Shown here one piece after another: positions 4,623 to 40,895 of a stretch of 64,000 bases of DNA. The notes under the pieces were generated by a model, which did no database searches, was not told where the DNA came from, and worked only from the letters and a program-made list of their open reading frames with translations. Location of the stretch: NCBI GenBank assembly GCA_041665885.1, contig JBAYHY010000003.1, positions 4,529-68,528 of the forward strand, written 5' to 3'. The position numbers and the translations under genes are program-made. Origin of the DNA: Minisyncoccota bacterium (GTDB taxonomy: Bacteria > Patescibacteriota > Minisyncoccia > Phycocordibacterales > UBA9973). Every line of letters starts with the position of its first letter. The stretch's first letter is position 1.

Positions 4623-6719
4623 GTGTGGGTATATAATATTTTTATGGCCCTAGGAGAAAAATTAGCAAAAATATCACAGGAGCTACAAACATCTAAAACA
4701 GAAGCCGAAAAAAGGTTTAAAGACAAAGAGCTTGAACCAGTTCGCGCTAAAATTAAAGAGCTTGAAGTTCAAAAATATCAGTTAGAATTAGTAAAAGGTT
4801 CTTTGGAATTGAGGTCTGGAGAAAAAACAGGTAAGGGGATGAGGGAGTATTCTTCCGAAACAAAAGAACAATCTAGAAGAGAATCCCAAAAGCTTGATAT
4901 TTTAATAGAAAAAAATAAAGAAGCTCTTCAGTCTATTGGAATAAAGGACAGAGACCAGCTTGTAGAAAATCCAGAGTTTGCCGAAGAAGAAGAAGTGGTT
5001 AGTTATAAAAAATCGGCAATTCAAAACGAGGGATTAAAAATGTCTGATTCTGTATTGCAAGAAAGACTGCAGGGTTTAGGAGTAAATTTTGATACTGAAA
5101 ATTTTTCTTACGATTTCGCCGAAAAAGCATTGTCGGAAAAATTAAAAACCCTTGAAAGAGATCTTGTGTTGGAAAAATTAAAAACACCAGAGGGGAGAGA
5201 AAATGTGCTAGAAATGGCCACAAGGGGCCTTGAGAACTCACTACCGAAAATAGATGTCGCAAGAGGTTATGTTTTTGTTAACGGCTCGGGGTTTTCATTG
5301 GAAAGATTGTCTGAAGCAAGGTTGCTACCTGAAAATATTAAAGAATACCAAGCAATATATGGTGAAGACATAACAGAGGAGGCAATAAAAAAAATACATG
5401 AACAGAAGGTGAGGGAAAGAATTTTCGATTCTGACAGAAGAGGAGAAAATATTTTTTCTTTGCAACACCAGATGGAGCTCGTTAAACCAGAAGAAGCTGA
5501 AAAAGCAAAAAGGCTTATGGAAAATTTTATTGAAGCTCAGAACAAATTTAGAATAGCCGCAAAACAGAAATCCGAAGAGCTCAAGGAAAAAAACATAAAT
5601 TTTGATCCGGCATATGCCACTAGATACGGTGGTGAATATGAAGATTATATTCGGATAACAGAATACAGAGAAAGCGAACGAGAGATTATGTCTGCGCTCG
5701 AGGATTCATCAAATTTTCCGCCTGAGTTTGATTTTGTGAAGCTTCAAGATTACATAAGCAATAGAATGGGTTCGGTTTTAAAATTTACCGAAGCTGTAAA
5801 GGGTATAAAAACAAGAGAAGATGTAAATAATTTTCTGGGTAGCGGAGGGGCTGTTTCGAGTGCCCACACAGATCAGCTTAAATCCCCACTTTCTGTGGCT
5901 AGGTTTAAGTTTACGCGAGAAAACTCAAAAGCTTTTTCGAACGATTCCTTCTTCGCAACAATAGAAGAAATGTCTGCAAGGTGTAAAACTTATGCCCAGG
6001 CAGAAGAATATCTCAATGGAAAGTCAAATGCTCTTTTAAGCATGGTGCCTGCCACTCTTAAAAAAATTGAATTAGCCACTGATGTTTGGAAAAGAATGAT
6101 TGATTTCTTACAAGAAGCAGAAAAAGAAAAATTTAGTTCTTCTCCCGATGGCAAGAAAACGATAGAGTCCATGATTAATGGAATAGAAGTAGGCAAAAAG
6201 AGCGCATCTAAGTTAATGTCCGAACTTACAAAATTAGAATCAGAATTGCCAAGAGAAACCGTTGTTCTTGAGGGGGGCAATATCACAGTTCCAGCTATTT
6301 CAAAACGATTGGAAGAATTGAAAAAAGACACAGAAGGTGAAGAGAAAAACTTAACTAGCCTAAAAGCGACAATTGGAAAGCATAAATCAAACGAACCAAG
6401 GTTTTTTGGAAAGGATAAATGGGAAGACGAATTAGCTGATTTGGAGAGGAAAAGAAAAGATTTAGAGAAAATAATTAGTAAGATGAAAGACGAGGATTTT
6501 CCCTCTTTAGCTAGAAAACAAACTTATTATGTTCCAGTCGAACGATATTGTCCCCAGGAAATAGAAGAGTTAGTCAAGAGCCAAAAGTCAAAAGGGGGTC
6601 CAAACGAAGTTTTTGGAAAGCTAAGGGCCCAGCTTGGTGAAATTATTGATCGCAAGGTTTCAGAATCTGTGGCGAAGCTCTACAGGGAGTATCAAGAACT
6701 AGAAAAACAAATGCAATGA
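4623..6719 (+). CDS. large E/K-rich coiled-coil hypothetical protein
   Basis: 698-aa ORF, highly charged with heptad-like repeats; no catalytic motif recognised. Confidence 0.6.
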   Translation: MWVYNIFMALGEKLAKISQELQTSKTEAEKRFKDKELEPVRAKIKELEVQKYQLELVKGSLELRSGEKTGKGMREYSSETKEQSRRESQKLDILIEKNKEALQSIGIKDRDQLVENPEFAEEEEVVSYKKSAIQNEGLKMSDSVLQERLQGLGVNFDTENFSYDFAEKALSEKLKTLERDLVLEKLKTPEGRENVLEMATRGLENSLPKIDVARGYVFVNGSGFSLERLSEARLLPENIKEYQAIYGEDITEEAIKKIHEQKVRERIFDSDRRGENIFSLQHQMELVKPEEAEKAKRLMENFIEAQNKFRIAAKQKSEELKEKNINFDPAYATRYGGEYEDYIRITEYRESEREIMSALEDSSNFPPEFDFVKLQDYISNRMGSVLKFTEAVKGIKTREDVNNFLGSGGAVSSAHTDQLKSPLSVARFKFTRENSKAFSNDSFFATIEEMSARCKTYAQAEEYLNGKSNALLSMVPATLKKIELATDVWKRMIDFLQEAEKEKFSSSPDGKKTIESMINGIEVGKKSASKLMSELTKLESELPRETVVLEGGNITVPAISKRLEELKKDTEGEEKNLTSLKATIGKHKSNEPRFFGKDKWEDELADLERKRKDLEKIISKMKDEDFPSLARKQTYYVPVERYCPQEIEELVKSQKSKGGPNEVFGKLRAQLGEIIDRKVSESVAKLYREYQELEKQMQ

Positions 6720-6765
6720 TTTCTTTGCTTGGGCACTCGGTGTCCAAAGGGTGAATCTTTTGGCT

Positions 6766-7161
6766 TTATTTCTTTTCTTCTACTTCTTTATCGATATGTT
6801 CCAGTTTTTCCTCCACCCTTTTCAGGGTTTTTTGTAAATTTTTAAGTTGCATTTCTTCTGTCTCGAGTTCTTCCTCTTCTTTTTCTTCTATCTTTTTCTC
6901 ACCGACTAGGCCGGAAATGATCAGTTTGCTCCCGACGAAAGCAGAAACGAATACTCCCGTCATAAGTAGCATAACGCTACCGATAATTAATGAGAGGACA
7001 GAGCTAACGCTCATGTCATCTGCGATATGCCAAACTCCACGCCAAAACAGCACAACCCCAATACCCCCAATAAATGCATAAAGAATAGGGTAATGGCTTA
7101 ATTTTTCTCTTATTTTGTTTTCCAACTTATCAAAAAACCTAACAATACTTTTTATAAACAT
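6766..7161 (-). CDS. small membrane protein with E/K-rich coiled-coil tail
   Basis: Two TM segments, then a charged helical C-terminus. Confidence 0.5.
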   Translation of the reverse strand: MFIKSIVRFFDKLENKIREKLSHYPILYAFIGGIGVVLFWRGVWHIADDMSVSSVLSLIIGSVMLLMTGVFVSAFVGSKLIISGLVGEKKIEEKEEEELETEEMQLKNLQKTLKRVEEKLEHIDKEVEEKK

Positions 7162-7200
7162 ATTTCTAATAATACACCAAATTATGCTAATATAAAATAG

Positions 7201-7644
7201 ATGAAAAAAGTTTCCAAAAATATTAAAGAAACGACAGAAATAGCAAAAACTTTTTTGGATAAAATCCTAAAAGATAAAAAAAACACAGAAAAGGCCACCA
7301 TTGTATGCCTTTCCGGCAATTTGGGCGCTGGCAAAACTGCATTTACCCAGGGCGTGGCAAAACACTTGGGTGTCAAAAGCAAGGTCGTGAGTCCTACTTT
7401 TGTAATATATAAAAAGTACCCGCTTAAAAACAAAAAACATAAATATTTATTTCATTTGGACGCGTATCGTCTTAAAAATGAAAAAGAATTATTGCATTTG
7501 GATTGGAATAAAATTGTTAGCGACAACGAAAATCTCGTAATCGTCGAATGGCCCGAGAATGTAAAAAAAGTTATTCCCAAGTATGCAAAATATATTTACA
7601 TATCAAACGACAAGAATGATTCAAGAATTTTGGAACTTAAATGA
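7201..7644 (+). CDS. tsaE: tRNA threonylcarbamoyladenosine biosynthesis ATPase TsaE
   Basis: P-loop LSGNLGAGKT and conserved VVSPTF motif of TsaE/YjeE. Confidence 0.85.
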   Translation: MKKVSKNIKETTEIAKTFLDKILKDKKNTEKATIVCLSGNLGAGKTAFTQGVAKHLGVKSKVVSPTFVIYKKYPLKNKKHKYLFHLDAYRLKNEKELLHLDWNKIVSDNENLVIVEWPENVKKVIPKYAKYIYISNDKNDSRILELK

Positions 7645-32555: not shown

Positions 32556-32666
32556 AAGCACAAAAATAGAAAAACCCAGGACTAAATCCTGGGTTTTTCT
32601 TTATCCACACTTCATGTTGATTTTTTTTACGATAATAGCATAATGTTTTCTAGAGGAGGACAGAAT

Positions 32667-32789
32667 ATGTACTCGAAACCGAAGAGAGAGAGAAGGCAGG
32701 ATCGCAACACTGAACTTCGTTGGGCCAAGAATGCTCGCAAGGACAGAAGGTCCAAAAAGTGGGCCCTCAAGAAGTGTAAGAAGCGCTAA
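32667..32789 (+). CDS. unannotated 40-aa highly basic peptide (MYSKPKRERRQDRNTELRWAKNARKDRRSKKWALKKCKKR), GC-rich
   Basis: Not in ORF track (below 60 aa). Strong SD (tctaGAGGAGGacagaat) 7 nt before ATG 32667, in-frame TAA at 32787..32789, followed by a GC hairpin. Lies in an otherwise unexplained ~650-nt gap between rplB and rpsS. Confidence 0.35.
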   Translation: MYSKPKRERRQDRNTELRWAKNARKDRRSKKWALKKCKKR

Positions 32790-32902
32790 TATTCTGTTTG
32801 TACCATCGTGGCGTGTCCGGGTCCAATCCCCGGCGCGCCCTTTTGTTTTAATGCTTGCTTTATTTTTTTGATATGTTATAATATGTAAAGAAGGAGGAGC
32901 AA

Positions 32903-33085
32903 ATGAGCAAAAAGCAGAAGGATGGGGCCATCCAAGGTGGTCACGAAGAAGGTACCTGCCGGCAATGCTGCCGGGCCGAAAGGAGTAGGTCGTTGCCCGT
33001 CGGAACGTTTCCGTTGAAGCGATCCTTCGGGACCAAGTGCGGGGGAGACCCTTGCACCTGTCAGTATCTCGAGCGTCCGCAGTAA
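32903..33085 (+). CDS. 60-aa Cys-rich small protein (CRQCC...C..GGDPCTC), GC-rich
   Basis: Strong SD AAGGAGGAG upstream, six Cys in clustered motifs, followed by terminator hairpin AGGGGTCCC-tat-GGGGCCCCT + T6 at ~33108..33137. Confidence 0.35.
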   Translation: MSKKQKDGAIQGGHEEGTCRQCCRAERSRSLPVGTFPLKRSFGTKCGGDPCTCQYLERPQ

Positions 33086-33211
33086 AATTTCACTGCGGGC
33101 ACAAAACACAAGGGGTCCCTATGGGGCCCCTTTTTTCTTCCTATTTGACATTTAAACTGAATTTGCTATTATAAAACCAAGCTCGTTAGGAGCTTTTTGT
33201 TTGCATAAATT

Positions 33212-35683: not shown

Positions 35684-36055
35684 ATGATTCAAAATGAAAC
35701 CCTAGTAAAAATAACAGACAATGCCGGAGGCACCGTGGGAAAGGTGTTCAAAATTTTAGGCTCCTCAAAAAAGAGATATGCAACTCTCGGTGAACTTGTT
35801 ATTATTTCCGTGAAGGTTGCTTCTCCGAGAAAAATGGTGAAAAAGAAAGACGTGCATCAGGCCGTCGTCGTGCGTACTCGCGGGGCTTATAGGCGAAAAG
35901 ACGGTTCATATATTCGTTTTGATGATAATGCCGTGGTGCTTCTCGAAAAAGGGAAGAAGGATCCAAAAGCCGGACGTATCTTCGGACCGATTCCACGAGA
36001 GCTTGCGGAAAAAGGGTTTCAAAAGATAATTTCTTTGGCTCAAGAAGTGATTTAA
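35684..36055 (+). CDS. rplN: 50S ribosomal protein L14
   Basis: MIQNETLVKITDNAGG...LGELVIISVK. Confidence 0.95.
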   Translation: MIQNETLVKITDNAGGTVGKVFKILGSSKKRYATLGELVIISVKVASPRKMVKKKDVHQAVVVRTRGAYRRKDGSYIRFDDNAVVLLEKGKKDPKAGRIFGPIPRELAEKGFQKIISLAQEVI

Positions 36056-36073
36056 TCTTTTAATATAATAAAT

Positions 36074-36292
36074 ATGAAATTAAAAAAAGGAGACAATGTA
36101 AAAATAATTACTGGAAAGGACAAAGGGAAGTCCGGGAAAATAGTGCGTGCATTGCCGAAAATGAATAAAGTTATTGTCGAGGGGCTGAACATGGCAAAGA
36201 AACACCAGCGTCCAAGAAAGACGGGGGAGAAGGGCACAATGATGAGTGTCGCCATGCCGATCCACGTTTCCAATGTTAAAAAAGCAGATTAA
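36074..36292 (+). CDS. rplX: 50S ribosomal protein L24
   Basis: MKLKKGDNVKIITGKDKGKSGKIV KOW motif. Confidence 0.9.
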   Translation: MKLKKGDNVKIITGKDKGKSGKIVRALPKMNKVIVEGLNMAKKHQRPRKTGEKGTMMSVAMPIHVSNVKKAD

Positions 36293-36303
36293 CGATATAT
36301 TTT

Positions 36304-36852
36304 ATGAAACATTTAACCGTAAAAGAAAAAGAGATAGAGGCCTTTTCAAAAATGAAAGATGTTTTTCATTTTAAAAATGCGATGGCGGCCCCGAAGCTCA
36401 AAAAAGTAGTAATCAATGTCGGCACCGGTACTGCCATGAAGAAAGACAAGAATAAGAATGATGCTATTGCTGATAGAATTGCAAAAATCTCCGGACAAAG
36501 GGCAGCTCTCCGAGGCGCCAAGCAGTCTATTTCTTCTTTCAAAATCCGCCAAGGAGATCCTGTCGGAATAGTGGTTACCCTCCGTGGCAAGAGAATGTTT
36601 GCTTTCTTGGAAAAATTAATTAACGTAGCTCTTCCACGCACGAAGGACTTTCGTGGGATTAACCGCACTGCCGTGGATGATATCGGAAATTTAACTTTGG
36701 GCATCAAAGAACACACCATTTTCCCGGAAACAGCCGATGAAGATATTCGCGACGTTTTCGGTTTGTCCATCACCCTTGTTTCCACCGCCAAAAACAAAAA
36801 AGAAGGCACCGCCTTCTTTGAAATCCTCGGTATTCCTTTTAAAAAGGAATAA
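36304..36852 (+). CDS. rplE: 50S ribosomal protein L5
   Basis: L5 core (PKLKKVVINVG ... FAFLEKLINVALPRTKDFRG). Confidence 0.95.
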   Translation: MKHLTVKEKEIEAFSKMKDVFHFKNAMAAPKLKKVVINVGTGTAMKKDKNKNDAIADRIAKISGQRAALRGAKQSISSFKIRQGDPVGIVVTLRGKRMFAFLEKLINVALPRTKDFRGINRTAVDDIGNLTLGIKEHTIFPETADEDIRDVFGLSITLVSTAKNKKEGTAFFEILGIPFKKE

Positions 36853-36861
36853 AACTATCTA

Positions 36862-36889
36862 TTGACTTTTTGTGTAAATATGCTATCAT
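36862..36889 (+). promoter_or_regulatory. sigma70-like promoter (TTGACT-16 nt-TATCAT) for the DGR target gene
   Basis: Read directly; near-consensus -35 and -10, placed ~35 nt before the conserved leader hairpin. Confidence 0.45.
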
Positions 36890-36923
36890 TTTAAGATAGT
36901 TCTTTAAAATCACTTGCGAAAAT

Positions 36924-37006
36924 GGTCATAGCCAAAAGGTGCTTAATTTTAGGCATTTCCTGGCTATGACCAACGATGGTCAAGTCCCCAACTCACGGGC
37001 AGTGAG
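36924..37006 (+). ncRNA. conserved structured 5' leader element (copy B) of the DGR target gene
   Basis: Outer stem GGTCATAGCC / GGCTATGACC (perfect 10 bp), inner hairpin GTGCTTA-attt-TAGGCAT, downstream hairpin CTCAC-gggca-GTGAG. C-to-T in the 5' arm relative to copy A is matched by G-to-A in the 3' arm. Confidence 0.55.
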
Positions 37007-37047
37007 AAACCTCTCGGCAGGAAGTCGAGAAGAAAGGCAAGGGCAAC

Positions 37048-37656
37048 ATGAAATACGGAGAATTGAATCTCGGTCAGATCGAAGCGGTTGTAAACAAACT
37101 CGGCGGCATGGAGGGAGTCAACCGATTCCTCCGAGATGAACTGATGGTTTCTGAACCAGCTCACCGTTTTCGTGTGGAGAATGGTGTCATCTACCTGTCC
37201 GTCACTTCCGACGGTACCACTGGCCCAGAGTGGACCAAGCGTCTCGAGAAGAAAGGGTATCGTCTCGGCGACTACGCCAAGCAGATCCTTTGCTCGAAGG
37301 ACTTCAAGCCCACCAAGGACGTCACCACCAAGATTGCTATCCTGAAAGGGACGCTCTTCTCGGACGAAGACCGCATCACAGAGAAGATTCGCACCGAAGC
37401 CGCCAAGCGGAACCTCACGAAACCGAACGCCGAAGTGGCTTGCCTCATCCGGGAGAACTTCTCGGACGAAGAGCTCGAAGCCATGGGTCTCATTTGGGTC
37501 GTCATCATGCACGAACCCATCAAGGATTCCGATGGCGACCCGCGTCTCCTCGACGCGGGCCGCGATGTCGAGGGCGGGTGGCTCGACGCCAATTACGACT
37601 ACCCTGTCAGCAGGTGGGCTCGTGACGATGGTTTCGCTTTCGTTTCGCAAGCGTAG
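37048..37656 (+). CDS. DGR target (variable) protein, GC-rich; C-terminal 42 codons form the variable repeat
   Basis: C-terminus DSDGDPRLLDAGRDVEGGWLDANYDYPVSRWARDDGFAFVSQA is the diversified counterpart of the Asn-rich TR-encoded peptide. NxxNPDNRxNxxGFR-like ending resembles C-type-lectin-fold DGR variable regions. Confidence 0.85.
   Translation: MKYGELNLGQIEAVVNKLGGMEGVNRFLRDELMVSEPAHRFRVENGVIYLSVTSDGTTGPEWTKRLEKKGYRLGDYAKQILCSKDFKPTKDVTTKIAILKGTLFSDEDRITEKIRTEAAKRNLTKPNAEVACLIRENFSDEELEAMGLIWVVIMHEPIKDSDGDPRLLDAGRDVEGGWLDANYDYPVSRWARDDGFAFVSQA
37527..37651 (+). repeat. DGR variable repeat (VR) at the 3' end of the target gene
   Basis: 125 nt aligned base-for-base with TR 37989..38113: 110 identities, 15 mismatches, every mismatch an A in TR (e.g. 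aac/gac, aat/cgt, aac/ggc, gac/gtc, aac/tac, aat/gct). Identical ~40-nt 3' segment ggtttcgctttcgtttcgcaag (IMH-like). Confidence 0.9.
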
Positions 37657-37707
37657 TACTCTAAACTGGGTCACTGTGGTCTTTTAGACACTTTGATCTT
37701 TGCATCC

Positions 37708-37740
37708 GGCCCCCGAACTTTGTTCGGGGGCCATTTTCAT
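37708..37740 (+). terminator. GC hairpin + T-run immediately downstream of VR (terminator and candidate DGR cis hairpin)
   Basis: GGCCCCCGAAC-ttt-GTTCGGGGGCC followed by ATTTTCATTTT. Confidence 0.7.
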
Positions 37741-37988
37741 TTTGTCTTGAAGATTTGTTATACTGAAAATGGTAATAGGTGAATATGTGGGAAATTACGG
37801 TTTCCCGCCACCGAATCCAGTATCCATGCGCCCGGAGTATCCGCGATTATAATTTCGGATAGAGTGGTGCATGCAGAAACTTCAAAAAAGAAGATACTTG
37901 GCACGAAATATTAGGGCATTACGATGCCGAATACGATACAGCTTTGAGAGAATTCAAGGAGCAGTGGCATGGATGATATTTCGTGCAT

Positions 37989-38113
37989 TTCCGATGGCAA
38001 CCCGAATCTCCTCAACGCGAACCGCAATGACGAGGGCAGGTGGCTCAACGCCAATTACGACAACCCTGACAACAGGTGGAATCGTGACGATGGTTTCGCT
38101 TTCGTTTCGCAAG
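37989..38113 (+). repeat. DGR template repeat (TR), adenine-rich (encodes an Asn-rich frame)
   Basis: Non-coding copy of VR. In the VR frame it reads SDGNPNLLNANRNDEGRWLNANYDNPDNRWNRDDGFAFVSQ; AAC/AAT at every diversified codon. Sits between target gene and avd. Confidence 0.9.
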
Positions 38114-38118
38114 TTTTT

Positions 38119-38484
38119 TCATTTCTCTCTCGCTTTTACGGCGGGAGAGTTTTGTTTTTGGAGTTGTCCATTCCAACCCCCGAGCATTTTTCCAATTTCC
38201 TCTATTTTTACAGACAGAGCAATATATTTTTTATCGTCTATTGATTTTGCTTCCCACAGCACCATCAAAAGTATTTTCAAGGTATCTATTTTTCTAATTG
38301 CCAACCGAACCCACGGGCTTTTTTCTTCCCGAGACAAAAAAGTAGCGGTAGAAATTGCTTCAATAATTTCAATAAACAAAATATCTATCTTTTGTCCGAG
38401 GGAGTATTTATGTATTTTAGGCAAAGTTTGGTAAAAAGTAATCCAAATTAGATAACAGCTCTTAACTTTTGCCAGTACTGGCAA
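38119..38484 (-). CDS. avd: Avd-like DGR accessory variability determinant (four-helix-bundle protein)
   Basis: 121-aa basic helical protein; YSLGQKIDILFIEIIEAISTA...KIEEIGKMLGGW resembles Avd/four-helix-bundle family. Sits between TR and RT. Confidence 0.75.
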   Translation of the reverse strand: MPVLAKVKSCYLIWITFYQTLPKIHKYSLGQKIDILFIEIIEAISTATFLSREEKSPWVRLAIRKIDTLKILLMVLWEAKSIDDKKYIALSVKIEEIGKMLGGWNGQLQKQNSPAVKAREK

Positions 38485-38502
38485 AAGTTGGGGGGGGGGG
38501 GG
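38471..38502. promoter_or_regulatory. 12-nt perfect palindrome GCCAGTACTGGC followed by a 13-G homopolymer in the avd/RT divergent intergenic region
   Basis: Read directly: ttttGCCAGTACTGGCaaaagttGGGGGGGGGGGGGtact, between avd start (38484, minus) and RT start (38519). Confidence 0.6.
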
Positions 38503-38518
38503 TACTATTATAAATACT

Positions 38519-39550
38519 ATGTCCCATATTCAATTTATTCATACTTACGATACTATCACTTCTATTGAAAATTTGCTTCTGGCGTGGAAAGAATTTATTC
38601 TTGGCAAGAAGAATCGTAAAGATGTGCAAGAGTTTGAAAGGAATTTAATGACTAACATTATTCTGCTGCATCAAGACTTAGTAAATAAAACATACAAACA
38701 TTCTCAATATGAAGCATTTAATATTTCTGATCCGAAACCGCGGAATATTCACAAGGCGAAAGTGCGAGATAGGTTACTGCATCACGCTATTTGTCGAGTG
38801 CTTTATCTGTTTTTTGATAGAACATTTATTACCGACTCCTATTCGTGCAGAGTAAACAAAGGAACCCATAAAGCGATAAATAGGTTTAGAAAGTTTGCTT
38901 ATCAGGCATCAAAAAACCATACGAAAACGGTTTGGGTTTTAAAAGGAGATATAAAAAAGTTTTTTGCTAACATTAACCACAATATTTTAAAATCAATTCT
39001 TAAAGAACACATACAGGACAAAAATATTTTATGGCTTTTGTTTCAAATTGTAGATAGTTTTTATACTCAAAATTCAATCTACGCTATAGCGGAGATAAAA
39101 AAAGGTCTTCCTTTGGGTAATTTAACTTCGCAACTGCTGGTAAATATTTATATGAATGAATTTGACCAATTTATGAAACATAAAATTAAGGCGAAATATT
39201 ATATTCGTTATGCGGACGATTTTGTAATTTTATCTAGTGACAAAAAATGGCTGATAAATATATTGCCTCAAATAAAAGATTTTCTAGAAAACGAACTCAA
39301 GCTTTCTTTGCATCCCACAAAACTATCAATAAGCACGGTTGCCTCGGGCGTAGATTTTCTGGGTTGGGTTTTGTTTCCAGACCATAGAGTGGTTAGAACT
39401 ATTACCAAACAAAGAATGTTTAGGGGCATAAAAAAGAAACAAGGAAATTTTGAAACGGTGCAATCCTACCTAGGGTTACTTAGTCATGGTAATGCAAGGG
39501 GGCTAGAATGGAAAGTCAGGAACGATTCAGGGTTTAGTAGTGAAATTTGA
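38519..39550 (+). CDS. DGR-type reverse transcriptase
   Basis: RT motifs including YIRYADDFVIL (YxDD box) and the DGR-specific GLPLGNLTSQLLVNIYM (GxxxSQ in place of the QGxxxSP of group II/retron RTs). 343 aa. Confidence 0.9.
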   Translation: MSHIQFIHTYDTITSIENLLLAWKEFILGKKNRKDVQEFERNLMTNIILLHQDLVNKTYKHSQYEAFNISDPKPRNIHKAKVRDRLLHHAICRVLYLFFDRTFITDSYSCRVNKGTHKAINRFRKFAYQASKNHTKTVWVLKGDIKKFFANINHNILKSILKEHIQDKNILWLLFQIVDSFYTQNSIYAIAEIKKGLPLGNLTSQLLVNIYMNEFDQFMKHKIKAKYYIRYADDFVILSSDKKWLINILPQIKDFLENELKLSLHPTKLSISTVASGVDFLGWVLFPDHRVVRTITKQRMFRGIKKKQGNFETVQSYLGLLSHGNARGLEWKVRNDSGFSSEI

Positions 39551-39757
39551 CTCTTTTGGGATTATTTGCTAATATCAGAGCAAGGGAATATGGCTTTGAT
39601 TAATCCACTTTTCTCCTTTAAATTCATGCTCTCCTCTCCTTCGGGGAGGTCGGGAGGGGTTTAAAGAAAAAAAGTGACCCGTTCGAGTAGAACTCAGGGT
39701 CATGGTGAGTGAAAACGAACCATGAGATATTAACAGGGCAATCCTGATAAATTATTT

Positions 39758-39943
39758 ATGGCAAAAACATCAGTAAAAGCTAGGGCAGCAAAAAAACCAA
39801 AATTCTCTACACGACAGAAAAATCGATGTTTTCGTTGCGGGCGAGGAAATGGTTTTATGCGTGATTTTGGCATCTGTCGTATTTGTTTCAGAGAATTAGC
39901 AAACGAAGGAATGCTTCCAGGTGTTAGAAAATCTTCTTGGTAG
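39758..39943 (+). CDS. rpsZ: 30S ribosomal protein S14 (Zn-ribbon type Z)
   Basis: 61 aa with [25 protein letters not shown]. Confidence 0.95.
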
Positions 39944-39954
39944 AATAAAATTTT

Positions 39955-40341
39955 ATGGATCAAATTTCAAATATGATAATAATAATGAAGAACGGAAGCT
40001 TGGCAGGCAAGGATACTGTAGCTTTTCCATATTCAAAGATGAAAAACGCGATTGCTGAATGTTTGAAGAAAGATGGCTATATTTCTGAAGTTTCTAAAAA
40101 AACAAAAAATGGACAACCGGTTTTAGAAGTCGAACTTATTTACATAGATAAAAAACCAAAAATTACTGAAGTGGAAAGAATTTCTAAACAATCCCGCCGG
40201 GTTTATTTCGGCATGAAAGACATTCATTCTGTCAGGAACGGTTCAGGCTTGCTGGTGCTTTCTACCCCCAAGGGGATTTTATCAGGTAAAGATGCTCGCA
40301 AAGAACAAGTCGGAGGCGAAGCCTTGTTTAGGCTGTGGTAG
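39955..40341 (+). CDS. rpsH: 30S ribosomal protein S8
   Basis: Position and conserved IIIMKNG...AIAECLKKDGYI pattern. Confidence 0.9.
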   Translation: MDQISNMIIIMKNGSLAGKDTVAFPYSKMKNAIAECLKKDGYISEVSKKTKNGQPVLEVELIYIDKKPKITEVERISKQSRRVYFGMKDIHSVRNGSGLLVLSTPKGILSGKDARKEQVGGEALFRLW

Positions 40342-40361
40342 TTTTTTTAGGTAATAAATAT

Positions 40362-40895
40362 ATGAGTAGAATAGGCAAACAAGAAATCTTAATACCAGCC
40401 GGAGTAAAAGTCACCCAAAGTGGCGATGTCATTACTGTCGTGGGCCCCAAGGGAACCCTTACTAAAATTTTTAGAGACGACATTGCCATTACTATTACCG
40501 ACAAAATGATAACTTTAAATATTAAAAGAAACGATAAGTTTTCCAAATCGCTCTGGGGCACTTATGCTTCACATATCAAGAATATGATCAAGGGGGTAGA
40601 GACTCCATATCAAAAGAAATTAATTTTGGAAGGGGTTGGTTTTAAGTCTGAGGTCAAGGGAAAAGAATTTCATTTTGCTCTTGGTTTTTCTCATCCCGTT
40701 GTCGTCGCTATTCCCGAAGGGATTACCGCCACCGCCGAGAAGAACGTCATTACTATTACTGGTATTGATAAAGAATTAGTCGGGAGTTTTACCGCAGCAA
40801 TTCGTGCTTTGAAAAAGCCGGAACCATATAAAGGTAAAGGCATGCGTTACGAAGGGGAAGTTATCAGACGAAAACAAGGTAAAAAGACCGTATAA
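40362..40895 (+). CDS. rplF: 50S ribosomal protein L6
   Basis: MSRIGKQEILIPAGVKVT... tandem alpha/beta domains; start set at internal ATG 40362. Confidence 0.9.
   Translation: MSRIGKQEILIPAGVKVTQSGDVITVVGPKGTLTKIFRDDIAITITDKMITLNIKRNDKFSKSLWGTYASHIKNMIKGVETPYQKKLILEGVGFKSEVKGKEFHFALGFSHPVVVAIPEGITATAEKNVITITGIDKELVGSFTAAIRALKKPEPYKGKGMRYEGEVIRRKQGKKTV

Follow-up and report, generated by a model that had tools for sequence, protein, structure and literature searches.

In bacteria that belong to the candidate phyla radiation (CPR), 90% of the diversity-generating retroelements (DGRs) have the architecture B3, TR-(avd)-RT, formed by a template repeat (TR), the accessory variability determinant gene avd and a reverse transcriptase (RT) gene (Wu et al. 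2018, PMC5758913), and DGR clade 2 is restricted to Patescibacteria (Roux et al. 2021, PMC8144416). Here we describe a DGR with this architecture in a stretch of 64,000 nucleotides (nt) of contig JBAYHY010000003.1 (assembly GCA_041665885.1, Minisyncoccota bacterium), hereafter the window, where it occupies the gap between the genes of ribosomal proteins L5 (rplE) and S14 (rpsZ). All coordinates are positions in the window, and numbers with the prefix L (L004, etc.) denote fetched relative loci or contigs. According to the reading that we favor, with a probability of roughly 0.85, a complete and apparently functional CPR B3 DGR resides in a permissive cargo site at the boundary of a ribosomal operon. 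As a DGR it is a routine member of the B3 class, and the interest of the locus comes from its context and from by-products of the analysis.

The rplE gene (36304-36852, plus strand; PF00281 and PF00673) is the predicted final gene of the upstream ribosomal transcription unit, and rpsZ (39758-39943, plus strand; zinc-type S14, PF00253) probably opens the downstream one. The gap from the stop codon of rplE to the start of rpsZ (36853-39757, 2,905 nt) contains a target open reading frame (ORF), a pair of variable repeat (VR) and TR, avd on the minus strand, and RT, i.e., a complete DGR. The cassette is compact, about 2.7 kb in size, with the gene order target, TR, avd(-), RT, and all its genes except avd run in the same direction as the ribosomal genes. 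The first-pass annotation of this stretch had placed a DGR, together with a promoter and terminators of its own, between the end of rplE at 36852 and the start of rpsZ at 39758; these coordinates and gene identities were exact, and the presence of a self-contained element was borne out.

The target ORF (37048-37656, plus strand) encodes a protein of 202 amino acids with no Pfam match and no obvious signal peptide. Its last 41 codons constitute VR (37527-37651, plus strand), and TR (37989-38113, plus strand) is a 125-nt direct repeat of it. The two repeats are 88% identical over 125 nt, and 15 of the 15 mismatches are located at adenines of TR, which contains 32 such residues in its 125 nt (hypergeometric p = 6e-11). 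All 15 changes in VR fall at codon position 1 or 2, and 10 AAY codons are present in TR. The final 32 nt of VR and TR, including four adenines, are identical, with divergence starting directly past 37651 and 38113, and represent an invariant segment resembling the initiation of mutagenic homing (IMH) site. BLAST of TR against the whole window revealed no further VRs. Homologs of the target (1,744 proteins) were found across CPR phyla, while the protein collection contained one VR allele of this particular target. The AlphaFold2 model of the target had a predicted local distance difference test score (pLDDT) of 84.8, and a Foldseek comparison with PDB placed C-type lectin domains on top, none of them significant (E-values all above 0.04, template modeling [TM] scores of 0.11-0.28). 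A sequence-profile search against PDB gave nothing meaningful, and the structure model of the C-terminal part alone was poor.

The insert had initially been regarded as rich in guanine and cytosine (GC), which could be taken as a sign of foreign origin. The GC content of the whole gap is 41.5% versus 40.2% in the window, and only the target (56%) and TR (54%) are GC-rich, whereas avd and RT have values of 36% and 33%, respectively. Genes of the target family have a GC content of 48%-62% in every host examined, and the adjacent RT genes have 29%-48%; the GC step of the target is therefore a family trait, and GC richness as a mark of recent foreign origin was ruled out. Among the target-family loci L090-L150 and the window, the target exceeds the adjacent RT by 10-28 percentage points, and in all but one of these loci its GC content is well above that of the surrounding genome.

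The RT gene (38519-39550, plus strand) encodes a protein of 343 amino acids (PF00078, E = 1e-26) that scored below the cut-offs for the group II intron, retron and Drt families. Both its DGR-specific motif LGNLTSQ (residue 199) and its catalytic motif YADD (residue 231) are intact. The avd gene (38119-38484, minus strand) begins with a TTG codon and encodes 121 amino acids of the bAvd family. The product scored 41.4 bits with PF22296 (cut-off of 40) and 60.4 bits with NF033474 (cut-off of 80), being aligned from residue 1, and is full length relative to the Avd model. Wherever the loci of RT relatives included avd, this gene is located on the opposite strand directly upstream of RT.

An empty site was found in L168, obtained from the same sample and showing about 84% nucleotide identity to the window (93% in rplE). 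In this locus, the stop codon of rplE is followed by 6 nt and then by TTGACTCTTTGGGGATTATTTGCTAATAT and the leader of rpsZ, and the right-hand promoter of the window (39547-39575) is near-identical to the promoter of the empty site. Comparison with L168 therefore defines the insertion point: the cassette is an insertion between the stop codon of rplE and the native -35 element of rpsZ. It starts at most 9 nt past the end of rplE, and at its other end the stop codon of RT (TGA, 39548-39550) lies inside the -35 hexamer. Despite the insertion, rplE, rpsZ, and the promoter and leader of the latter are intact. Transfer RNA genes, considered as possible integration sites, were not found near the insert. 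An Rfam scan of the region 36000-40500 (E <= 1) yielded nothing above noise, and across the whole window only tRNAs and a tmRNA reached the gathering score.

Since the source is a short-read metagenome assembly and composition shifts within the insert, an artifact of assembly or binning that joined a DGR contig to a ribosomal contig was considered, as had been suggested in the first-pass annotation. Both junctions are clean, however, and the contig of the window (JGI 3300037810, Ga0376277_0002180), which belongs to a Candidatus Nomurabacteria/Paceibacterota bacterium, was found in two samples. The same DGR architecture is present at the same junction in L004 (JBBAAI010000001, identical to L165), whose contig of 357 kb originates from another study, and the junction architecture is also found in L166, a 175-kb contig of an independent ENA assembly. 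Together, the recovery from two samples and the loci L004/L165 and L166 exclude a chimera for practical purposes, and we consider this explanation extremely improbable.

To characterize the junction, the best 80 L5 relatives from species-representative genomes were collected (62%-89% identity, all Nomurabacteria- or Paceibacterota-like). In 66 of them the retrieved region included rplE as well as rpsZ, and these 66 served as the denominator for junction counts. A near-consensus extended -10 promoter is located 131-231 nt upstream of the ATG codon of rpsZ in 63 of the 66 genomes; in the window it consists of TTGACT, a spacer of 17 nt and TAATAT preceded by TG (39547-39575, plus strand). The smallest gaps between rplE and rpsZ hold, in order, sometimes a terminator, then a promoter (TTGACT, 14-15 nt, TGnTAGTAT), a leader of about 100 nt, and rpsZ; a terminator after rplE was present in several relatives. 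Five strong promoters of this type occur in the window, versus 0.76 expected from shuffled sequences, at positions 21348, 28227 (tuf), 33145 (rpsS), 36862 (target) and 39547 (rpsZ).

The leader of rpsZ (39576-39757, plus strand) is predicted to be a structured RNA with a conserved covarying hairpin. The consensus contains 18 pairs, with 95% of cells paired, and double compensatory changes were found in 14 of them. By a stricter count, 12 of the 18 pairs were supported, compared to 0-2 in slid controls and at most three in shuffled alignments. In the window, the leader is enlarged by an additional insert of about 45-48 nt (approximately 39675-39722). It had no match in Rfam and may be considered a candidate new ribosomal-protein leader RNA.

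Cargo at this junction is always located upstream of the rpsZ promoter. Because a separate promoter and a covarying leader belong to rpsZ, with the insert upstream of them, the rplE/rpsZ junction in Nomurabacteria is predicted to be a boundary between two ribosomal transcription units. The tight spacing without intervening signals that characterizes a gene internal to the spc operon was not found here. Consequently, the initial view that the cassette lies inside the operon should be revised, as should the view that rplE and rpsZ are normally adjacent or a few nucleotides apart: the shortest directly measured gap in the lineage is 136 nt, and the median and maximum based on tblastn are 703 and 4,245 nt, respectively.

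A gap longer than 450 nt with varied cargo of 0.45-4.2 kb was found in 39 of the 66 genomes, and the location of the DGR, initially described as unusual, is thus not exceptional for the lineage. The six neighboring junctions, from L14/L24 to L18/S5, have median lengths of 8-62 nt, with at most one case above 300 nt in each. Since the content of the rplE/rpsZ junction is unrelated and variable while the neighboring junctions are stable, this junction is a lineage-wide cargo hotspot in Nomurabacteria. The cargo comprises 89 ORFs, of which 52 are singletons. It includes a family of 16 type IV pilin-like proteins (N_methyl, PF07963) and a partner family with seven members, as well as a DUF4143 ATPase, TruB, guanylate and other kinases, and an Lcl_C protein. 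No integrases or transposases were seen in the Pfam-scanned representatives or in a reading of about 30 cargo translations. Duplicated fragments of the flanks, screened for with L5, S14 and L24 fragments, were detected only in L024. A small membrane-anchored protein together with a type IV pilin-like protein is a recurrent pair in the cargo, and four pilin-like ORFs stand in a row in L021.

Additional cargo is present in the window at another junction, rplB/rpsS (32556-33211, 657 nt), which is only 110 nt long in the relative L168. It contains, in order, a terminator, an ORF for a very basic protein of 40 amino acids (32667-32789), a second terminator, an ORF of 60 amino acids (32903-33085) that is GC-rich and encodes a Cys-rich product, a third terminator, and the rpsS promoter at 33145.

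The cassette carries a promoter for the target (36862-36889, plus strand; TTGACT, 16 nt, TATCAT preceded by TG), which is missing from the empty site in L168. A homologous promoter ('CTATTGAC...') precedes the target genes of related DGRs located in non-ribosomal contexts. The conserved 5' untranslated region (UTR) of the target (36896-36972, plus strand) contains an inverted repeat forming a hairpin with 24-nt arms (36923-36972), and shares 79%-82% of its nucleotides with the equivalent segment of L085, L086, L114, L128, L139 and L140. The possibility that the promoter at 36862 is a copy of the rpsZ promoter was rejected, given the homologous promoter and 5' UTR in DGRs elsewhere; a duplication is also contradicted by the empty site, which matches the right-hand promoter only. 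A strong terminator with an 11-bp stem, including nine GC pairs, followed by a T-run is located after the target (37708-37732, plus strand).

The region directly 5' of TR (37754-37988, plus strand) is a putative structured non-coding RNA domain of 235 nt, conserved across 40 or more related DGR loci with 70%-84% nucleotide identity. The RNAalifold consensus had 54 pairs with 98% of cells paired, and 32 pairs were supported by compensatory changes, versus 0-3 pairs in slid controls and no more than seven in shuffles. The domain had no match in Rfam, and in CPR B3 elements it may serve as the scaffold of the DGR RNA. An extended -10 element, TGTTATACT, was recognized by eye at 37756-37764, with a weak -35 element. 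TR is followed by a terminator-like hairpin (38125-38159, plus strand; -15.6 kcal/mol) of the form CTCTC...GAGAG and then TTTTGTTTT; in the terminator scan this hairpin was called at 38125-38149. The equivalent hairpin with TTTTGTTTT was found in 48 of 50 unique relatives, and it is likely the 3' end of the DGR RNA. Because the hairpin lies opposite the last codons of avd, the C-terminal tail of Avd and the hairpin would constrain each other.

Based on these signals, the following scheme of expression could be proposed. The target would be transcribed from the ribosomal-class promoter of the cassette, with a contribution of read-through from the rpsS...rplE unit, driven by the promoter at 33145, and this transcription would halt at the terminator 37708-37732. 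The DGR RNA would be a transcript of its own, about 390 nt long and starting after TGTTATACT, with the structured 5' domain, TR and the terminator hairpin as its parts. According to the established DGR mechanism, RT and Avd would copy TR into cDNA with misincorporation opposite adenines, and this cDNA would replace VR. The avd and RT genes would be expressed divergently across a G13 tract between them, possibly an on/off switch.

The first-pass annotation had proposed that read-through from the ribosomal promoter could drive RT. In its full form, this explanation assumes that the DGR lies within a single highly transcribed spc operon and that ribosomal read-through governs RT and hence mutagenesis. 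It is consistent with the co-orientation of the cassette genes other than avd with the ribosomal genes and with the results of the terminator scan of the plus strand, which revealed no intrinsic terminator after rplE. Likewise, there is no terminator in the stretch from RT to rpsZ, and the -35 element of rpsZ overlaps with the stop codon of RT. However, the strong terminator after the target and the conserved hairpin after TR both precede RT, and the 366 nt ahead of RT are antisense to avd. Moreover, a separate promoter and leader of rpsZ are present in 63 of the 66 relatives, and the TR-(avd)-RT modules of 80 relatives lie away from the nine tested spc-cluster genes and therefore should have expression signals of their own. 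A single operon thus appears quite unlikely. Under the favored reading of a self-contained DGR at a transcription unit boundary, read-through can reach the target since no terminator follows rplE, and could raise its expression, but it would hardly feed RT because two terminators and the antisense avd gene intervene.

The 80 closest RT relatives from metagenomes share 61%-74% identity with the RT of the window. None of these 80 DGRs elsewhere adjoins any of the nine spc-cluster genes tested, including those for L5 and S14; therefore, judging from these loci, the ribosomal location is specific to this small lineage rather than a property of the DGR clade. The closest DGR is that of L004, with 88% and 84% amino acid identity for Avd and RT, respectively, compared with 84%-100% for the flanking ribosomal proteins (100% for S14 and 89% for L5), while the next-closest RT is 74% identical. 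Conservation of Avd and RT at the level of ribosomal proteins fits residence at this site since before the split of the two species, and we infer that the cassette entered the site before this split. The possibility that the genes are ancient operon members with a host-like GC content, which had been raised as an objection to an insertion, was supported in part: the closest species shares avd and RT at the same site with host-like GC content, but more than 60 other relatives have neither gene.

Homology with L004 at the DNA level breaks at 36979-37753 and 37958-38113 of the window (6670-7463 and 7668-7829 in L004), and the target and TR of L004 encode a VR peptide unrelated to that of the window. 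The 5'-TR domain of the window is 81%-82% identical to those of L128, L090 and L150, which share its target family, versus 75% for L004. Since the target and TR are unrelated to those of L004 while avd and RT are orthologous, the module consisting of the 5' UTR, target, 5' domain and TR was probably replaced by the corresponding module of a different DGR from the same clade, and avd and RT stayed in place.

The more distant locus L024 (6540-7960) contains a remnant of a DGR at the same site, which has retained the promoter, a target homologous to the L004 type, a terminator and the 5'-TR domain. It lacks TR, avd and RT; instead, a 143-nt duplicate of the 3' end of rplE is located just before the rpsZ promoter, which suggests exchange by homologous recombination. 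The remnant in L024 therefore shows that decay, as well as recombination within rplE, has taken place at this locus. It also makes conceivable that the cassette of the window is itself a fixed, non-mutagenic remnant with a domesticated target and decaying DGR machinery, and the non-ATG start of avd beside the slippery G13 tract could be interpreted in the same way. Against such decay, there are no non-adenine mismatches between VR and TR in 125 nt, the RT motifs, the full-length avd and all RNA elements are intact, and avd and RT are conserved relative to L004 at the level of ribosomal proteins. We therefore regard a degenerate cassette as unlikely and retain the interpretation of an apparently functional DGR.

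The G13 homopolymer (38490-38502) is located inside the 34-nt spacer between the divergent start codons of avd and RT. At the same position, L004 has a G10 tract, and the flanking spacer is identical to that of the window. Tracts of G7 to G13 were found in 47 of 59 related loci, and most others had repeats of 2 or 4 nt. The non-G types were (GT)n, (TTGG)n, (TTGA)n and (CTGG)n, so that the repeat unit was 1, 2 or 4 nt but never 3. Loci L142 and L147 differ in tract length (G10 and G9, respectively) despite 100% identical 300-nt flanks. The observed variability is a signature of a contingency locus acting on mutagenesis genes, and the tract may represent a phase-variation switch, which would operate either through translation of avd or through the spacing of a promoter or UTR.

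In all 58 loci with a tract, the reading frame of avd continues uninterrupted across it, and in 41 of these 58 loci a non-start codon is aligned to the TTG start of avd in the window. An in-frame start of avd beyond the tract was present in only 26 of 60 loci. The upstream ATG of avd is the reverse complement of a conserved His codon of RT and is missing in L004, and an N-terminal extension of avd is in frame in about a third of loci, as expected by chance. A translational switch that extends avd is also argued against by the alignment of the Avd model from residue 1 of the TTG-started ORF.

Two other G-tracts were noted in the window. One of them, G9 at 25510-25518, follows TTGACA in an apparent promoter spacer and is possibly another slippage-prone promoter; it precedes the second of two non-ribosomal ORFs (130 and 92 amino acids) located between rpsG and fusA (25027-25838). 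The other, G9 at 22963, lies within a terminator-like hairpin.

A broader hypothesis, which is tentative, combines both observations: CPR B3 DGRs could be phase-variable via the avd-RT tract, and the rplE/rpsZ spacer of Nomurabacteria could serve as an expression platform for rapidly exchanged genes. If so, strand slippage would switch the mutagenesis machinery, and hypermutation of the target would be a heritable, reversible and stochastic state. Variable or surface genes, such as those for pilins, Lcl_C proteins and DGR targets, would be accommodated where a ribosomal transcription unit ends, and recombination in the ribosomal genes on either side, which are near-invariant, would pass them from one lineage to another.

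Several points weigh against the favored interpretation. The avd gene starts with TTG, and if G13 is a switch, the element could currently be off. The activity of the DGR, its transcription start sites and termination are inferred from sequence alone. The patchy distribution of the element (the window, L004 and the remnant in L024) could reflect lateral exchange rather than one ancestral insertion. The sample of junctions consists of the 80 best L5 relatives only, and the Foldseek comparison gave no significant match for the fold of the target.

These observations indicate that the ribosomal "super-operon" in this CPR lineage is probably cut into separately promoted units, one of the cuts being a busy cargo site. 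This is of consequence for the use of rplE and its neighbors as syntenic phylogenetic markers, and also because variable inserts can break or mis-bin contigs at this place. The locus also represents an apparent natural case of modular evolution of a DGR, in which the target/TR module was exchanged and avd and RT persisted. The 235-nt covarying domain, the terminator hairpin and the avd-RT tract provide leads on the regulation and RNA of non-phage DGRs. In the literature examined, we found no description of a DGR site or hotspot between the stop codon of rplE and the promoter of rpsZ, nor of the rpsZ promoter with its leader, the 5'-TR domain or the avd-RT repeat tract, although earlier descriptions are possible. 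No relevant papers linking DGRs to phase variation or CPR ribosomal operons to cargo were found.

Compared to known systems, the element most closely resembles the CPR B3 DGRs and the DGRs of clade 2, with which it shares the gene order, strands, Avd, an RT with LGxxxSQ and YADD motifs, and the host phylum, as well as the C-terminal location of VR, the adenine-only differences between TR and VR, and AAY codons. The DGR of Bordetella phage BPP-1 (mtd-avd-TR-brt) is similar in the set of components, the logic of mutagenic retrohoming and the presence of an invariant 3' stretch in VR and TR (32 nt here). Unlike in BPP-1, avd is inverted and placed between TR and RT, and the element is chromosomal rather than carried by a phage. 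Only a terminator hairpin is found 3' of TR, whereas BPP-1 has a 140-nt spacer priming cDNA synthesis; on the contrary, a large conserved structured domain is located 5' of TR. The IMH-like segment is GC-rich in BPP-1 but not in the window. The site itself resembles islets and integration hotspots flanked by core genes, where variable content is located between two highly conserved genes; it differs in lying inside a ribosomal-protein cluster, and the cargo is therefore placed where a ribosomal transcription unit ends. The putative rpsZ leader is similar to ribosomal-protein leader RNAs, such as the S8 site of the Escherichia coli spc operon, in having a conserved covarying hairpin between a strong promoter and a gene, but the E. 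coli site is located at rplE, while this leader precedes rpsZ and matched no Rfam family. Finally, the avd-RT tract resembles the contingency loci of Neisseria, Haemophilus and Campylobacter, in which repeats of varying length are located between divergent genes or at their 5' ends; in this putative switch, a mutagenesis machine (avd/RT) would be switched rather than a surface antigen.

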